Shown: positions 892-40,364 of the stretch, in pieces
How positions within the stretch are numbered: position 1 is the first letter of the stretch
Layout of the letters: every line of letters begins with the position of its first letter
DNA from: a virus
Taxonomy: Duplodnaviria > Caudoviricetes
DNA length: 40,364 nt
IMG/VR virus record: IMGVR_UViG_3300025888_000017
Span: 1 to 40,364 of that record
Strand: one strand, 5' to 3'
Notes under the pieces: model-generated
The model's database searches: none
The model's input: only the letters and a program-made list of their open reading frames with translations
Told to the model about the DNA's origin: nothing
Program-made: the position numbers and the translations under genes

Positions 892-946
892 TTGCGTTTA
901 CTAAAACCGTATGCTATATTAAGAGTATCAGCAAAGCAAAGAAAGG
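892..946 (+). promoter_or_regulatory. Early sigma70 promoter PE1 with conserved leader
   Basis: TTGCGT-17 nt-TATATT with extended TG (GTATGCTATATT), then CAAAGCAAAGAAAGG leader/RBS. Confidence 0.8.
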
Positions 947-952
947 TACAAG

Positions 953-1537: not shown

Positions 1538-1903
1538 ATGAGAGAAATTAAGTTTAGGGTCTACAGCAGAAGTGATGGAAGTATACAGACAGTATTTTAC
1601 CAGACCGTTGAAATCAGTAGTAGACAAGGATGTTTTAACGGTTTTCCCGACAGTCTTGCCCTTTGCCAATACACAGGTCTTAAGGACAAGAACGGGGTCG
1701 AGATATACGAGGGAGACATCCTCGGTCTTATTCATAAAAAGCATGGTCTACAGAATACTAAAAAGGTTGTTTGGGATGATACCAATGCTTGCTTTGACTG
1801 GGAAGACGCAAACGGCGACAGTTTTCCTGATGGGTTCACTGGTTTCTATGATGAATATTCCGTCATCGGCAACATCTACGAGAATCCGGAGTTACTATCA
1901 TGA
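1538..1903 (+). CDS. YopX family protein
   Basis: MREIKFR...QYTGLKDKNGVEIYEGDI...VIGNIYENPELL signature. Confidence 0.92.
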   Translation: MREIKFRVYSRSDGSIQTVFYQTVEISSRQGCFNGFPDSLALCQYTGLKDKNGVEIYEGDILGLIHKKHGLQNTKKVVWDDTNACFDWEDANGDSFPDGFTGFYDEYSVIGNIYENPELLS

Positions 1904-2220
1904 CCGCTCCTGACATCAACGCCATCAAGCGTAATATCCTACTAATCATCCAGGATAGCCCAGAAGCGGCGAATGATAAAGCCCTCCTGTACTCAATATA
2001 CTGGACAACCTACGACGGCTGGAACGATCGAAATGATCCACTAGTCTCTAAGTTGAGGCGATGCACTCGACCGGCTACGATTGACCGTAGACTCCGAGAA
2101 CTCCGTGAGGCTGGATTGATTCAGCTATCACCAGAGCGCGAGAAGGTAATATACTCGGCATTTAATAACGAACGAAATAATAAAAGTAAACATGTTGCTA
2201 TTAGCTGGATGGAGGACTAA
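1900..2220 (+). CDS. Hypothetical protein, possible winged-helix DNA-binding protein
   Basis: RPATIDRRLRELREAGLI resembles a wHTH recognition helix; ATGA overlap with the previous gene. Confidence 0.55.
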   Translation: MTAPDINAIKRNILLIIQDSPEAANDKALLYSIYWTTYDGWNDRNDPLVSKLRRCTRPATIDRRLRELREAGLIQLSPEREKVIYSAFNNERNNKSKHVAISWMED

Positions 2221-2571: not shown

Positions 2572-2957
2572 CACGAGAAATCAAGTTTAGGGCATGGGAC
2601 ACAATAGCAAAAATGTGGCTCCCTAGCGACTTTATTCAAGACTCACTCTGTGTGGGCGTGCCTAACGAGCCAAAGAATGGGGTATTTATCATCCATAAGT
2701 GGAGGAATAGTCTTCAAATCACACAGTATACGGGTTTTCAAGATAAAGACGGCGTTGATGTATATGAGGGCGATATTGTTAAGTTTACAGAAATTACTCG
2801 TGGCTCAACAGGTGAACGGGTGTCGTGGAAAACGGTCGAAGTAAAACTTTGGATTGATGAGGAAGCAGGAGAATTTTATCTGTATCCACGGGTGAATAGC
2901 ACCACAGGGGTCATGGGCAACATCTACGAGAACCCCGAACTACTGGAGAAGAAGTGA
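2568..2957 (+). CDS. YopX family protein (second paralog)
   Basis: REIKFRAWD...QYTGFQDKDGVDVYEGDIV...GNIYENPELL. Confidence 0.92.
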   Translation: MTREIKFRAWDTIAKMWLPSDFIQDSLCVGVPNEPKNGVFIIHKWRNSLQITQYTGFQDKDGVDVYEGDIVKFTEITRGSTGERVSWKTVEVKLWIDEEAGEFYLYPRVNSTTGVMGNIYENPELLEKK

Positions 2958-4087
2958 AATATTTTAGTACCTTTACCGGTATAGGAGGATTTGAAATTGG
3001 AATTGATAATGCACACAAACATGTCGGGCAACAGAACACTACACCCAATAACGATGTGCCTACGGAGTGGGGCATCGACACACTACCAACTTGTGTTGGT
3101 TATTCCGAAATCGACAAATACGCAATTAAAGTATACGAAAGGCACTTCCCTAATGTTAGAAACTACGGAGATATTACAAAAATCAACGCAGACACCCTCC
3201 CCGACTTCGACTGTCTTGTTGGCGGATTTCCTTGTCAGGCATTTTCAATCGCTGGAAAGAGAGCAGGATTTAACGATACCAGAGGGACGCTATTCTTTGA
3301 CTTGGCGAGAATACTTAAGGTCAAAAAACCTAGACTATTCGTTTTTGAAAACGTCAAAGGACTGCTTAGTCACGACAACGGAAACACTTTTAGAACTATC
3401 ATCTCCACGATTGATGAGTTGGGGTACGATTGTCAATGGCAAGTGCTTAACAGCAAAAATCACGGAGTCCCCCAAAACCGAGAGCGCGTTATCATTGTCG
3501 GACATCTTAGAGGAACACCCCGACCCGAAGTATTTCCTATCACGGGAGACCACACAGAAGATTCTAAAAGACGTATTGACGCGGCAGGAATCAACAATCC
3601 TTCACGGGGTTATGAAATTAGACGAGACGGACTCGCAAGTAGCCTAAGAGCTACCGAGATGGGTAGTAAAAACTTCATTGCCGATATTAGGCAACTCAAC
3701 CATCCGACACACTCGAATGACAGGGTTTATGGCGAAGATGGTATATCGCCATCACTAAATACAATGCAGGGTGGGTTGCGGCAACCATTCATAGCACCAG
3801 TATTGACCCCAGACCGACTAGTAAAGCGGCAGAATGGCAGACGTTTCAAGGAGAATGGAGAGCCGAGCTTCACGCTAACTGGACAAGATATACACGGGAT
3901 ATATGACGGTATAAAAATCAGACGCCTAACACCCCTCGAATGTGAGCGACTACAGGCGTTCCCCGACAACTGGACGGCACTCGACCAAGAGGGACGACCC
4001 ATCTCTGATACTCAACGCTACAAGATGTGCGGAAATGCAGTGACCACTAATGTGATACGCGATGTGTTTGAAAGGATATTGCTATGA
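2954..4087 (+). CDS. DNA (cytosine-5)-methyltransferase, Dcm/HhaI-like
   Basis: FTGIGG (I), GGFPCQAFS (IV), ENVKG (VI), PQNRER (VIII), RRLTPLECERLQAFP (IX), YKMCGNAV (X). Confidence 0.95.
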   Translation: MKYFSTFTGIGGFEIGIDNAHKHVGQQNTTPNNDVPTEWGIDTLPTCVGYSEIDKYAIKVYERHFPNVRNYGDITKINADTLPDFDCLVGGFPCQAFSIAGKRAGFNDTRGTLFFDLARILKVKKPRLFVFENVKGLLSHDNGNTFRTIISTIDELGYDCQWQVLNSKNHGVPQNRERVIIVGHLRGTPRPEVFPITGDHTEDSKRRIDAAGINNPSRGYEIRRDGLASSLRATEMGSKNFIADIRQLNHPTHSNDRVYGEDGISPSLNTMQGGLRQPFIAPVLTPDRLVKRQNGRRFKENGEPSFTLTGQDIHGIYDGIKIRRLTPLECERLQAFPDNWTALDQEGRPISDTQRYKMCGNAVTTNVIRDVFERILL

Positions 4088-5560: not shown

Positions 5561-5988
5561 CCCCATCATCTACACCCCTAGGTACGTTCTCTGGAGATGG
5601 CTCAAACATACCACGAGCAAGCGTTACCGTTACTGGTCTCGACCTAGAGAAGTTATCGAAACAAGGGTCACGGGGGTCATCACCTACACCACAAGATGAC
5701 TATCTCGAGAAGATGGCTATAGAGGCTAAGGTAAGGGAGTTTTGGGTAACTGCTGATGGCGAACCTAACATAAAAGATTTTGTTGAGTATCTACACGCAG
5801 ACCGCAAAGCCTACGGCGACCAACGTGCTCAAAAAGCCCATGAAGATGGATATAGAGAAGGGGCGATTGATATAGCTCGGAGGATAGCTATTAGCGGTAA
5901 TCCAGCATATACAGCAACAAGATTTGTCGCTGAACTTATTCCAGCTAATACTATACTCAATAAGGCTGAACTCAAGGAGAAAAAGTGA
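5557..5988 (+). CDS. Hypothetical protein
   Basis: GGAG RBS; overlaps both neighbours by 4 nt. Confidence 0.6.
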   Translation: MTPSSTPLGTFSGDGSNIPRASVTVTGLDLEKLSKQGSRGSSPTPQDDYLEKMAIEAKVREFWVTADGEPNIKDFVEYLHADRKAYGDQRAQKAHEDGYREGAIDIARRIAISGNPAYTATRFVAELIPANTILNKAELKEKK

Positions 5989-6539
5989 GATACAAAACAA
6001 TATATGCTGACCCACCGTGGAAGTTGCAGTCTATGTCAGATACCTCGTGGAAAACGGGTAGAATGCCCCTTGAGAGCAAGTATCCCCTAATGAAGCTGAA
6101 GGACATTCAGGCTCTTGACGTGGCTAGCCTAGCAGACGACGATTGTTCGCTGTTTCTCTGGTGTACTCAGTCAACGCTGCAGGACGCCCTAGACACCATG
6201 AAGATATGGGGATTCAAATACCACGTAGTCATAACATGGGATAAGGGAGGCGGCTTCAGCTTGTGGGGATTCCACCGACGTACCGAACTGTTGTTATACG
6301 GCTACAAGGGAAAGATAAATGTGAACCAAAAGGGCAAATATATACCTACCCTATTTACTGAGAAAAAGACACACCACTCGGCAAAACCACAAGTCGCGTA
6401 CGAAATGCTCGAATCAAATACGCCCGAACCACGACTAGAAATGTTTGCTCGTATAAAGCGACCAGGATGGCATACGTGGGGTAATGAACTAGAAAACGAA
6501 GTTGAACTCAATGCTAAGAGGGAGAAAGACAATGAATAA
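5985..6539 (+). CDS. MT-A70 family N6-adenine methyltransferase
   Basis: YKTIYADPPW, LFLWCT, WGFKY, TELLLYG, HSAKP, RLEMFAR..RPGW..WGNE. Confidence 0.93.
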   Translation: MRYKTIYADPPWKLQSMSDTSWKTGRMPLESKYPLMKLKDIQALDVASLADDDCSLFLWCTQSTLQDALDTMKIWGFKYHVVITWDKGGGFSLWGFHRRTELLLYGYKGKINVNQKGKYIPTLFTEKKTHHSAKPQVAYEMLESNTPEPRLEMFARIKRPGWHTWGNELENEVELNAKREKDNE

Positions 6540-35881: not shown

Positions 35882-36384
35882 AATTCGCCCCCATCCCGCA
35901 GTCTGTCCATTGTCTCTTGTTCCGCTGGTAGAAAATATACTTGCTCGTAGTTGCGGTCAGCGTCATCTAGGGCGCAGTCACCGCGAGTCTTATGGCTACC
36001 ACAAAATACTCTGTAAAGATTCCAGTCGTAAAGTGTTTCTTTATCACCACGGCTCGTCCATGCGTCTAGTCGCTTATATTTAACATCTGCTATGTTTGAA
36101 CAACTTTCTTGATCGCATAGGTAAGAGTCATCAATAAAGTCCCATCCATCGTTTTTATAAATTATTGCCCCGTCAAGGTAGCGAATCGCGTCATTAACAC
36201 TGGAGAACCCAAAACTACCGATACGGTGACCCTTATAGAACAGGTCGGCACTGGCGCTAATACGGTACTCATCCCCCGACATTTCGGACTCTTTCCAGCG
36301 GGGGATAGTCATAATTTTAACCTCATCCCATCTTTGACTATCTGGTCTTGTTGCTTTGTTTGCTATTACTTTACCATTACCCAT
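35878..36384 (-). CDS. Hypothetical Cys/His-containing protein
   Basis: ATG 36384 after GAAAGG; CDQESC...FCGSH..RGDC. Confidence 0.75.
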   Translation of the reverse strand: MGNGKVIANKATRPDSQRWDEVKIMTIPRWKESEMSGDEYRISASADLFYKGHRIGSFGFSSVNDAIRYLDGAIIYKNDGWDFIDDSYLCDQESCSNIADVKYKRLDAWTSRGDKETLYDWNLYRVFCGSHKTRGDCALDDADRNYEQVYFLPAEQETMDRLRDGGEL

Positions 36385-36390
36385 ACTTAT

Positions 36391-36445
36391 CCTTTCAGTT
36401 GCTTTATAGTATCCCCAATATAGCATACACTTACTAATAATTCAA
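36391..36445 (-). promoter_or_regulatory. Early sigma70 promoter PE-L with conserved leader
   Basis: Minus strand TTGAAT-17 nt-TATATT (GTATGCTATATT) then TAAAGCAACTGAAAGG. Confidence 0.8.
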
Positions 36446-36447
36446 GC

Positions 36448-36600
36448 TATAGTGCCCCCCTACCGCAGCTATCCTGAAGTTCCGAGGCAAAGCTTTTACT
36501 GTATTATCTACGACCGTTCAGTACCTCGCCTACTAGGTGATAATTTCCCGAGCTGTATAGACATCGCATTGGCCAGGTTGACGTAGTAGGGGGCATTATA
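36448..36600. other. Nested inverted-repeat element (structured RNA or ssDNA/origin structure)
   Basis: TATAGTGCCCCCCTAC / GTAGGGGGCATTATA outer arms; inner CAGCT/AGCTG, CGAGG/CCTCG, TACTG/CAGTA. Confidence 0.55.
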
Positions 36601-36707
36601 TCAGCGCCTGGACTTAACGTCATCTACAAACTCTTATTCAGTTTTAATGGCTGAGAACATTTTTAGTAAAAGTACTTGTGCAATAAAATAGATATGATAA
36701 CATAGAG

Positions 36708-36750
36708 ATAACTCATGTTAGTTAGGACGTTCCGTAAGGGCGTCCTTTTT
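36708..36750 (+). ncRNA. Putative ~45-nt counter-transcribed antisense sRNA
   Basis: TTGTGC-16-TAACAT promoter (36676-36703); ACTCATGTTAGTT seed; AGGACG..GTAA..CGTCCT-TTTT terminator. Confidence 0.55.
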
Positions 36751-36812
36751 CATACCTGATTTATTACCCCTCTACTTCGCTAGCACTCATGTTAGTTTTT
36801 CAAGTTACTCGT

Positions 36813-36841
36813 ATAATACACTAGAAATAATGGTTATGCAA
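36813..36841 (-). promoter_or_regulatory. Leftward sigma70 promoter driving a micro-ORF leader
   Basis: Minus strand TTGCAT-17 nt-TATTAT. Confidence 0.7.
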
Positions 36842-36843
36842 CC

Positions 36844-37010
36844 AAAAAACACGGCTATTCTGCGGTCTCCATAGTCAGAGATACCACAACCGTGTTAATT
36901 GTTTCGGTGGCGAGGGTGGGCAAGCCAGAGAATAGATAGAATTGTTATCTAGCGAGTGCGGAGGCACTGCTCATGCGATCAATGTGCGCCTAGTATCACT
37001 ACTGGGATAA
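36844..37010 (-). ncRNA. Putative ~165-nt multi-hairpin sRNA
   Basis: TTGTAT-16-TAAAGT upstream (37043-37016); several hairpins; long G-U-containing terminal hairpin followed by U6. Confidence 0.45.
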
Positions 37011-37051
37011 TTCATACTTTACTCGGTTATGGTTAAAATACAATACCAATT

Positions 37052-37149
37052 AGAAAAGAGACCGGAGTGGGCCGATCTCTTAAATGCCAGACGTCAAAGC
37101 AATGAAAAGTAATCGGAGACCCCGAGGGGTAAGAGAATACCGTCTAGCC
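37052..37149 (-). ncRNA. Putative ~97-nt trans-acting repressor sRNA antisense to early leaders
   Basis: GCUAGACG/CGUCUGGC closing stem, unpaired UUUUCAUUGCUUUGA, 10-bp terminator AAGAGAUCGG/CCGGUCUCUU+UUCU; G-U pairs favour the minus strand. Confidence 0.65.
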
Positions 37150-37154
37150 CCTAT

Positions 37155-37184
37155 ATAATAACATGGGTGTGGATAAGTATTCAA
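37155..37184 (-). promoter_or_regulatory. Promoter for the sRNA, with DnaA box in the spacer
   Basis: TTGAAT-18 nt-TATTAT with extended TG; TTATCCACA at 37176-37168. Confidence 0.65.
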
Positions 37185-37193
37185 TGGTAATGG

Positions 37194-37251
37194 TTGTATA
37201 TATGGTAAACGTATGCTATATTAAGAGATACAAAGCAAAGTAAATGAAAGG
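37194..37251 (+). promoter_or_regulatory. Early sigma70 promoter PE-R with conserved leader
   Basis: TTGTAT-17 nt-TATATT (GTATGCTATATT), CAAAGCAAAGTAAATGAAAGG. Confidence 0.8.
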
Positions 37252-37259
37252 TGAATATA

Positions 37260-37964
37260 GTGAAAGAAGAAGATAAATCAATCCAGGGCGAAGTGTTGCC
37301 AAAGCAACCCAAAAAATCTAAGGCGGAGATAGCACTAGACATACGCCAACAAGAGGTGAGGCTTGAGAAGGCTACAGCGGTAGCCACTACAACAACATCG
37401 GCCTTTAACCCTATAGTCTATAGCCAGATGAAACAACTAGCTACCGACCTGATACTAGGGGGCGCGACATCGGCAGACGCCAAGACGCCAGAGCAACTTG
37501 TAGTTAAACTACAGGCTGGATTTGAACTTGGGATGACACCAGTAGAGAGCCTGAATAGCTTATATATCGTCAGTGGTCGCGTCACAATATGGGGCGCAGC
37601 ACTAATTAAAAGACTGAGGATCGCTGGCTGGTCAGTAAACTATAAAGACGAGACGCCAGAGAAGTGCACGATTGTTGTATCAAAGGGCGATGACTTTATC
37701 GAGGATACATTCTACTTTAAGGACGCCCAAGACTCGGGTTATACATCGGGACAAAGCGGTCTAAAGGTAGGGTGGAAACTAGGACAGAATCGTAAACTTA
37801 AAATGCGCTACGGCGCGGCTTCACAGTTAGTCAAGACCTATTTACCCGAGGTGCTCGGAACGATTGCCGGTATCGCCGAGGTTGACGAAGACGCCCCGAA
37901 CCCTATTGAATCAGTAGAAGAGAAAAAAGCTAAACTGTTGGAGAAGTTAAATGAAAATAATTAA
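37260..37964 (+). CDS. RecT/Redbeta-like single-strand annealing protein
   Basis: GFELGMTPVESLNSLYIVSGRVTIW pattern; adjacent to a YqaJ exonuclease; GTG 37260 is better spaced from GAAAGG. Confidence 0.7.
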   Translation: MKEEDKSIQGEVLPKQPKKSKAEIALDIRQQEVRLEKATAVATTTTSAFNPIVYSQMKQLATDLILGGATSADAKTPEQLVVKLQAGFELGMTPVESLNSLYIVSGRVTIWGAALIKRLRIAGWSVNYKDETPEKCTIVVSKGDDFIEDTFYFKDAQDSGYTSGQSGLKVGWKLGQNRKLKMRYGAASQLVKTYLPEVLGTIAGIAEVDEDAPNPIESVEEKKAKLLEKLNENN

Positions 37965-39504: not shown

Positions 39505-39563
39505 TTGACTTTGATGTAACCGTATGCTATATTGGTGAGTAGGTCACAAAGCAATGAAAGACC
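39505..39563 (+). promoter_or_regulatory. Early sigma70 promoter PE3 with loop-displayed conserved leader
   Basis: TTGACT-17 nt-TATATT (GTATGCTATATT); GGTC-acaaagcaatgaaa-GACC hairpin. Confidence 0.8.
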
Positions 39564-39744
39564 GAACCAGCGACGGGATGCACACCCCCAAGCCACACAA
39601 AGGTATAAGGCACCGCTGGATAACCAAAATAAACAAAAGGAGAAATAAATGTTCTTGGTAAAACGCCACGACCAGCCAAATAAGATCAAGTTTATAAGCC
39701 TCTAAATGGCGAGTATAATCAAAATAGTACATTGAAAATTAAAC

Positions 39745-39873
39745 GATACAGGATGAAGTGCTGGTAGTAAGTTCAAGCGTGAATGAGGCTTGAGTAGGCC
39801 ATAGGTCGTCATTCTGAAACTACTATGAGGTGAATGCCTTTAAATGCTTGCTACTAGTACCTTGTCCTGTATC
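39745..39873 (+). ncRNA. Putative 129-nt structured RNA
   Basis: 28-position basal stem with one mismatch and several G-U pairs; internal hairpins with complementary loops GAAUGA/UCAUUC. Confidence 0.65.
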
Positions 39874-39907
39874 ACACCACAAAACTAATTAAGGAGAAAT
39901 CAAAGAG

Positions 39908-40108
39908 ATGGGTAAACCAAAAACAACAGAGCCGACAGTGCCGAAAGCACCTAAAGCCCCAAAAACAATCAAAGTAAGCACACTAGTCACCTGCGGAATC
40001 ATCCTACTCGGATTGATCGCCAGCTTTATCGGTGGGATTGTGGTATCCAATCACTACGCAAGCACCGTCCATGCCGAGGCTGTCAAAATATCTTTAACGC
40101 TGAAGTAG
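39908..40108 (+). CDS. Single-pass membrane protein
   Basis: AAGGAG RBS; basic N-terminus then a TM helix. Confidence 0.8.
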   Translation: MGKPKTTEPTVPKAPKAPKTIKVSTLVTCGIILLGLIASFIGGIVVSNHYASTVHAEAVKISLTLK

Positions 40109-40364
40109 TGCCCTCGGCTGAGCCTACTGTCAAAACTAAGGTCGTAGAAGCGCCCACAAGCGCAGTACATGAACAAGTAATAGAAACGCCCTCCGCGCCC
40201 GTTCTCGTGGCTCAGAGCGCCCCACAAGCGCCTGCGTCGAGCCATGAGGACTGGATGGCACAAGCGGGGATCGCAGAATCAGATTATAGCTACGTTGAGA
40301 CACTCATAGGGCTAGAGTCGTCCTGGAACCCGAACGCGGTCAATCCATCAAGTGGAGCCTGCTC
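40108..40364 (+). CDS. Lytic transglycosylase (SLT/Rpf/aggregation-promoting-factor-like), partial at window end
   Basis: Translated by hand: VPSAEPTVKTKVVEAP...HEDWMAQAGIAESDYSYVETLIGLESSWNPNAVNPSSGAC. Confidence 0.8.
   Translation, partial: MPSAEPTVKTKVVEAPTSAVHEQVIETPSAPVLVAQSAPQAPASSHEDWMAQAGIAESDYSYVETLIGLESSWNPNAVNPSSGAC

Follow-up and report, generated by a model that had tools for sequence, protein, structure and literature searches.

The 40,364-nucleotide stretch analysed here (the window) is predicted to encode a minus-strand small RNA antisense to several early leaders of the same phage, a reading that is well supported by comparison with related loci. The RNA appears to represent an uncatalogued antisense family, conserved in shape and with several predicted targets per genome, for which the comparative support is strong. 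Its likely role is that of a multi-operon antisense brake on early translation.

The window is the whole of a linear IMG/VR virus record (IMGVR_UViG_3300025888_000017) that is estimated to be complete. It ends inside an incomplete transglycosylase-like gene and no terminal repeat was seen in it, so the window is not a closed genome and some DNA is missing. Annotated genes comprise terminase, coat, holin, methylases, a RecT-like gene (37260–37964, plus strand), which is the first gene of a recT-exonuclease operon, a YqaJ-like exonuclease, and a resolvase. Three DNA methyltransferase genes are situated in the early region (135–818, 2954–4087, and 5985–6539). RecT-like protein matches among deposited phages are distant ones only, below 60% identity, and BLAST of 36450–37250 against plasmids and deposited phages gave no match. 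Among sequencing runs no RNA holder was listed, a result without bearing on expression. The RNA unit and the early promoter beside it are laid out as follows.

37155–37184, minus strand: predicted sigma-70 promoter of the RNA (promoter scan; same place in 14 of 15 loci), with the -35 box at 37184–37179, an extended -10 box at 37160–37155, and the predicted +1 near 37148.
37052–37148, minus strand: predicted small RNA of about 97 nt (fold z -3.2; layout kept in relatives).
37141–37148, minus strand: 5' arm of the closing stem (fold; layout of relatives; pairing-preserving changes in one run X3 contig).
37119–37130, minus strand: apical hairpin, one of two alternative folds, the other being 37125–37113.
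37095–37112, minus strand: seed, the mostly open 3' strand complementary to the leaders (swap test, unpaired probability).
37086–37093, minus strand: 3' arm of the closing stem (fold; layout of relatives).
37052–37081, minus strand: intrinsic terminator hairpin and U run (scan).
37194–37222, plus strand: rightward early promoter, back to back with the RNA promoter.

The original prediction described a minus-strand unit with its own promoter, closing stem, hairpin, and terminator, and all of these are present by promoter and terminator scans and by folding (-35.1 kcal/mol, z -3.2, with 0 of 200 shuffles as good). The terminator hairpin listed by the scan contains 10 pairs (37081–37056, minus strand). 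The two promoters are indeed arranged back to back, with -35 boxes (37184 and 37194) 9 bp apart. The seed, described as unpaired, is mostly open (mean unpaired probability 0.65, compared with 0.31 in the rest of the RNA), but part of it lies in a 3-bp helix of the minimum-energy fold. The Rfam search proposed together with the prediction gave no match at gathering score in the window or in 11 related loci, and no C4-type covariance row was returned at E≤10 for 36300–37400 or for loci L034–L036. No paper on this phage group was found in open-access text; the supplements of PMC10690425, on viral candidate RNAs, could hold a model.

A 12-nt promoter block is present in four copies in the window (909, 37211, and 39522 on the plus strand; 36428 on the minus strand) against 0.22 expected. 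The four leader motifs claimed to follow these shared promoters are all found, and correspond to four putative targets.

37231–37253, plus strand: Target 1, leader and ribosome-binding site of the RecT-like gene (duplex -18.7, accessibility-corrected -16.5).
932–948, plus strand: Target 2, leader of ORF 953–1267, behind promoter block 909 (-15.7; cognate RNA rank 1 of 19).
39547–39559, plus strand: Target 3, 13/13 match over the start codon of a 35-codon ORF (39554), behind block 39522 (-14.7; rank 1 of 19).
36389–36405, minus strand: Target 4, the weakest, leader of the leftward ORF 36384–35878, behind block 36428 (-12.2; rank 1 of 19).

Predicted duplexes of the seed with the four leaders have energies of -18.7, -19.0, -18.3, and -16.9 kcal/mol, and the leaders themselves are nearly unstructured (0 to -5 kcal/mol). 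Pairing with the adjacent leader (37231–37250) requires a 5-nt bulge. The motif at 39547 overlies the start codon of the 35-codon ORF instead of a GAAAGG site. Downstream of it, at 39569–39620, a possible 6-bp stem closes a long loop inside this ORF, and pairing of the RNA at the 39547 target might switch structure in addition to blocking the start codon. Further along, a promoter at 39691–39719 precedes a stretch of about 150 nt without an ORF (39727–39885), with apparent end-to-end pairing by eye, located before ORF 39908. An atlas search with the leftward ORF 36384–35878 returned only leads below 0.9.

The 8-mer of the leader motif occurs seven times in the window against 1.56 expected, the largest count in shuffles being six. 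One copy omitted from the original prediction, at 1796 on the minus strand, falls on the non-coding strand of a plus-strand gene and has a duplex energy of -18.8; single 8-mer copies are weak evidence. Two further copies are found within target genes.

37300–37307, plus strand: in-gene 8-mer, probably due to chance (duplex -10.7; not kept in relatives).
36351–36358, minus strand: in-gene 8-mer, unsupported (duplex -13.9).

The presence of these extra copies was predicted correctly, but they have no counterpart in relatives: across 16 loci the inner match is 5.1 nt for cognate and 4.9 nt for non-cognate RNAs, and a match of 8 is reached in the window alone.

Scans with the RecT-like protein and the exonuclease yielded 14 distinct close loci with upstream DNA. 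Duplicates were dropped (L033, identical to the window; L092 and L093, with the upstream region of L091; L096 and L014, the contig of L003; L114, the same as L113), as was L037, which is without upstream DNA. A DNA pattern scan with promoter block and motif gave 10 loci, none of which was taken as a relative. The layout is kept in 14 of the 15 close loci, the window included: a minus-strand -10 box, of the extended type in 12 of the 14 layout-positive loci, is positioned 37–58 nt from the early -10 box and back to back with the early promoter. In 13 of the 14 relatives and in the window the predicted RNA starts no more than 5 nt from the closing stem, and on the 3' side of an apical hairpin lies a large open strand matching the leader of the divergent gene. 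The exception, L034 (RecT identity 80%), has the -10 box and the stem and no leader pairing. On the 3' side of the stem, a separate terminator hairpin is seen in the window, L003, L089, L091, and L094, and a U-rich run in most others. The divergent gene varies (RecT-like, Erf-like, other annealing proteins, or small ORFs), and the RNA is therefore linked to the position and not to the gene.

The RNA cores themselves are barely alike (identity 0.60, compared with 0.54 for shuffled sequences). Predicted RNAs are about 45–100 nt long, with cores of 43–82 nt; the seed lies 9–20 nt from the 3' end of the stem and is more open than the rest of the RNA in 19 of 19 cases. The longest exact matches between seed and leader span 7–20 nt, and matches tolerate insertions of 1–5 nt. 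Most seeds include an anti-Shine-Dalgarno core, while the L095 seed instead covers the spacer and the start codon. A detector with criteria derived from the first loci finds the expected unit once each in 10 whole records (G000–G006, G233, G237, and G241); it gives one odd match in G243 and misses L112 at the strict cut. No unit was detected in nine coat-protein relatives (G231, G232, G234–G236, G238–G240, and G242), there were 0 strict matches among 147 candidates in 24 distant loci, and the unit is absent beside the gene in distant RecT relatives (approximately 31–51% identity). At either end of record G005 (C1:1–378 and 39846–40216) the locus is present, in two versions with 86% identity in which the apical stem differs and the loop and the bulge matching start codon and Shine-Dalgarno site are kept; these ends are probably two strains joined.

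The key evidence comes from crossing 15 RNAs with 15 leaders. In 13 of 15 rows the best leader is the phage's own (it comes third for L087 and eleventh for L034), and 13 of 15 columns are likewise led by the phage's own RNA. Mean energies across the 14 positive loci are -16.6 kcal/mol for cognate and -7.8 kcal/mol for non-cognate pairs, the common Shine-Dalgarno core making up part of each match. None of 200,000 permutations is as good, a count that is not a clean probability because the loci are related, although the effect of kinship, if any, would be to help non-cognate pairs. For five loci found afterwards the rank is 1 (G241), 1 (L112), 1 (L111), 2 (G233), and 3 (G237) of 19, the L111 pairing being weak (-8.2, column rank 5). 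The joint change of seed and leader that was to be looked for in relatives is observed.

Pairing extends beyond the adjacent gene in most phages. Matching leaders number four in the window, three in G004 and G005, two in G001, G002, G003, G237, and G241, and one in G006 and G233, which lack a second target; in the other 8 of the 10 whole records, promoter-proximal leaders besides the adjacent one match as well. When candidate starts are ranked in these records, the leading positions mostly belong to the first gene after a strong promoter. The rankings contain noise: among 435 candidate starts in the window, an antisense 48-codon ORF at -34079 stands above all four targets and two unrelated starts stand above the leftward one, which is found in the eighth row, and the G237 ranking is led by a short minus-strand ORF. 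A further 76 genes behind strong promoters were compared without selection on pairing: for 12 of them, some pairing weakly, the best of the 19 RNAs is the phage's own, against 4 expected (p 6e-4). In the window, the genes ranked first in this way are exactly the three other targets of the original prediction.

Taken as a trans-acting antisense RNA, the molecule probably closes the early operons together and serves as a delayed brake in the infection cycle. It would be made from its own promoter and be stable by virtue of stems holding both ends, and its open 3' strand would pair over the Shine-Dalgarno site or the start codon of the first gene behind each early promoter, thereby blocking ribosome loading; the effect may spread down each operon by polarity. 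We infer repression rather than activation because either the Shine-Dalgarno site or the start codon lies within the paired region and the leaders are nearly unstructured. On entry both back-to-back promoters would fire, early proteins would come first, and early translation would close as the stable RNA accumulates, a delayed shut-off that would scale with genome copy number. A second phage entering with an identical leader would likewise be silenced, and related phages with diverged seed–leader pairs would be largely blind to each other's RNA.

It is interesting to speculate whether the same RNA and pairing could be the sole repressor of a non-integrated, plasmid-like prophage and define immunity groups, a form of the original prediction adjusted to the missing integrase, which we regard as unlikely. 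A broader scenario, in which the phage group swapped repressor protein and integrase for an RNA-run switch, a single RNA of conserved shape silences all early operons, a fast-changing seed sets the immunity groups, and neighbouring small RNAs run a plasmid-like replicon that is dormant outside the chromosome, is equally doubtful. A sole-repressor role would fit the position of the RNA, which has the lysis genes on one side and the early operon on the other and points away from the latter, and the seeds are largely specific to their own phage. The claim that the window holds no CI-like gene agrees with the absence of a CI-type family or integrase among its 58 ORFs and of HTH_3 and S24 matches in the window or in G003, which has terminal repeats; it is qualified by the window not being a closed genome. 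HTH_3 is likewise missing from the two integrase-bearing relatives, both without detected RNA, and its absence therefore does not discriminate. One targeted operon moreover encodes a candidate protein regulator.

1900–2220, plus strand: probable winged-helix protein (weak Pfam HTH_24; atlas leads; structure model).

The model of this ORF has a pLDDT of 76.7 and a middling best Z of 7.7 among mostly winged-helix chains, a Foldseek search returned nothing at E≤0.001, and homologues are found in several relatives. Since it models as a probable winged helix, the notion of an RNA-only repressor is weakened. A multi-target antisense RNA is well supported by the co-variation, then, while the proposal that it replaces the protein repressor fares less well.

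Searches for integration and partition genes also speak against a sole repressor. Tyrosine integrase (PF00589) is found in 0 of 13 RNA-bearing related records, all of which except G003 are linear and may be incomplete, and neither resolvase (PF00239) nor ParA (PF13614) was found in the five records tested for each. Integrase is present in 0 of 8 near-complete RNA-bearing records (window included) and in 2 of 8 without detected RNA, numbers too few to claim mutual exclusion of RNA and integrase. The integrases without detected HTH_3 or RNA lie in G231 (C1:20382–21332) and G235 (C1:38311–39435 and 2937–3835); other G235 genes look by eye like Lsr2 and Mrr, a possible hint of an actinobacterial link. 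One RecT relative belongs to a Saccharibacteria bin, and homologues of the exonuclease or coat protein were found in 0 of 221 genomes of that candidate host class, which likewise counts against the sole-repressor proposal. A dif-like site scan gave three loose matches in 21 records, none in the window.

In favour of a dormant replicon, the leftward module consists of a replication initiator in three relatives and, in 7 of 20 loci, of a promoter-repeat-terminator-repeat unit; a plasmid state is therefore possible. In the window this unit (36678–36841) comprises a plus-strand promoter, a 13-nt motif (36711), a terminator (36724–36752), and, 74 nt further, a second motif copy close to where a convergent minus transcript is predicted to begin. 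The same layout with different repeat letters is recognized by script in the window, L085, L087, L088, L090, L095, and L113, and by eye in L003, L034, and L036. It resembles an antisense pair of the plasmid copy-control or par kind.

Several other elements were observed in this region. A conserved non-coding element (window 36515–36685, minus strand; L003:9315–9480, L090:8700–8895, L113:5570–5720) is 83% identical to L003 over 191 nt and without Rfam match. It folds better on the minus strand, with 20 pairs, 4 of them with two-sided changes, and a conserved loop across four sequences. It occupies the place of the replication initiator in other relatives, and is possibly an origin or primer RNA; inspection by eye for a coding frame in this 170-nt element led to rejection of that reading. 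The first leftward promoter-hairpin unit is succeeded by a second one (window, about 36845–37033, minus strand; L035:573, L086:9222, L088:5099, L090:9206, L091:1998), and L091 has a run of several such units. Pieces of this window stretch are well kept in contigs of three runs. The short word carried by the second unit is conserved in about 10 loci rather than co-varying, which suggests a host target or a protein site. Short tandem DNA repeats beside a 95–106-codon ORF replace the initiator in L084 (1100–1480), L112 (570–1040), and L111 (5067–5387), and may form a minimal origin; two of the small repeat-adjacent ORFs were scanned and had no PHROG match. In the complete record G003 no long initiator-like ORF was found in the stretches listed, and a chaperonin-like gene, by eye, lies directly before the terminase genes (C1:3012–4574).

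A different view of the motif is that of an asymmetric DNA operator for a phage protein, such as that of ORF 1900–2220, with the copy at 37095–37108 being another site. Asymmetric, oriented operators exist in other phages, the 12-nt block is common to all four window promoters, and a probable winged-helix gene with homologues in several relatives is available. Nevertheless, we give the operator only a slim chance. The copy in question is part of the open strand in a conserved fold that has a promoter to itself, and the motif varies freely and takes insertions between the sites of one phage. In the first nine positions of the closing stems, with the register taken from the minus-strand fold, there are 105 Watson-Crick pairs, 13 G-U pairs on the minus strand, and 2 A-C pairs (G-U on the plus strand), which favours a minus-strand RNA by 13 to 2. 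In the single run X3 contig (depth 2.3) the core 37086–37145 is unchanged and the flank is different; there the -10 box is at about the same distance and the 5' arm pairs only via minus-strand G-U. Counting the other way, the minus strand folds better than the plus strand in only 9 of 14 cores. Among co-targeted promoters of relatives, the leader is more alike than the upstream sequence in 16 of 17 pairs, a lenient comparison because the pairs were chosen by pairing. The direction of wobble between seed and leader is not decisive: it is 19:16 in the first scoring and 12:4, 11:2, 5:2, and 7:1 in four later ones, with a non-cognate baseline of about 0.6, and since it leans the right way only under stricter scorings chosen afterwards, it is not relied on.

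Slightly less probable still is that the RNA is real and functions for the most part as a generic anti-Shine-Dalgarno decoy for host or late messages, local duplication having produced the match to early leaders as a by-product. The anti-Shine-Dalgarno core of most seeds and the average of -7.8 for non-cognate leaders would be accounted for in this way, but the seed flanks follow the leaders of the phage's own genome, including ones several kb distant, and the L095 seed lies over the spacer and start codon and not over the core. An AT-rich intergenic terminator with ordinary Shine-Dalgarno similarity can practically be dismissed, since although single 8-mers do arise by chance (the copy at 1796), it is contradicted by the swap test, the layout in 14 of 15 loci, the loci found later, and the strong-promoter test (12 of 76).

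In the antisense brake, one leader word at several early promoters is kept matched to a single RNA. An RNA family of this sort would be missed by sequence searches, since its letters follow the target and only shape and position persist. The 19 natural RNA–leader pairs form a crossable set that would allow a direct test of how RNA-based immunity groups diverge, and they might serve as orthogonal translation switches. Should the RNA maintain dormancy as well, phages classed as lytic because they lack integrase and CI would need re-examination.

Known phage antisense RNAs share parts of this arrangement. In the text available for P22 sar, lambda OOP, and aQ, each RNA is antisense to one target gene (ant, cII, and Q, respectively), blocks translation or triggers decay of an early regulator, and serves a protein-repressor switch (PMC12197685); blocking of early genes is also proposed here, with several targets. 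Divergent promoters at the start of the early operon, as in lambdoid switches, are found in the window too. The P1/P7 C4 RNA represses the ant antirepressor operon that contains it, alongside the C1 protein (accessible part of PMC8198154). Like C4 and the N15 CA RNA (cited in PMC7567579), the RNA described here would be an antisense RNA acting on a phage early operon, but in contrast to C4 there is no antirepressor among its predicted targets, which are recombination genes and genes of unknown function, and no Rfam match. The P4 CI RNA is, in the portion of the source available, processed from the transcript it controls, pairs with the flanking seqA and seqC, and causes premature termination (PMC4825925). 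CI provides RNA-based immunity and, as here, is a small structured RNA pairing with short leader sites of its own element (accessible text of PMC4825925), the pairing being predicted in the present case. Open strands of a folded RNA matched to short leader sites, as in C4, CI, and CA, are thus seen in the predicted pairing and co-variation; processing from the regulated transcript is not, since in sequence the RNA has its own promoter on the opposite strand, with targets on up to four separate transcripts, some kb away. It shows neither an Rfam match nor co-transcription with its targets, and these tests place it outside the C4/CI kind.

SviR, the IIR transcript of Vibrio cholerae PLE satellites, is overlooked by the statement that each known phage RNA acts on one operon; from the available parts of its description it appears to be the closest tested precedent, with P1 C4 and P4 CI further off. 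In those parts, a single SviR seed base-pairs with 5' UTRs belonging to several operons of the element itself (10.1101/2022.04.08.487710; PMC7567579), and pairing overlaps the orf12.1 ribosome-binding site and lowers expression of a GFP fusion (10.1101/2022.04.08.487710). SviR is 210 nt long, highly conserved across PLEs, flanked by inverted repeats, and equipped with a second seed for the helper phage (as given in 10.1101/2022.04.08.487710; PMC7567579). Both are stand-alone RNAs with a promoter and a terminator, and both use one seed for several leaders of their own operons, here by prediction and in 8 of 10 whole records. As far as the SviR sources go, three differences stand out. The phage RNA is about 45–100 nt, whereas the conserved SviR is about 210 nt; its shape is kept and its sequence is not, the seed diverging with its targets; and it lies back to back with the promoter of its first target in a phage with its own virion genes, whereas SviR belongs to an integrated satellite. 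Relative to the published SviR text available, antisense pairing with several own leaders is already known, and what differs is the size, the back-to-back promoter, and the seed that diverges together with its targets.
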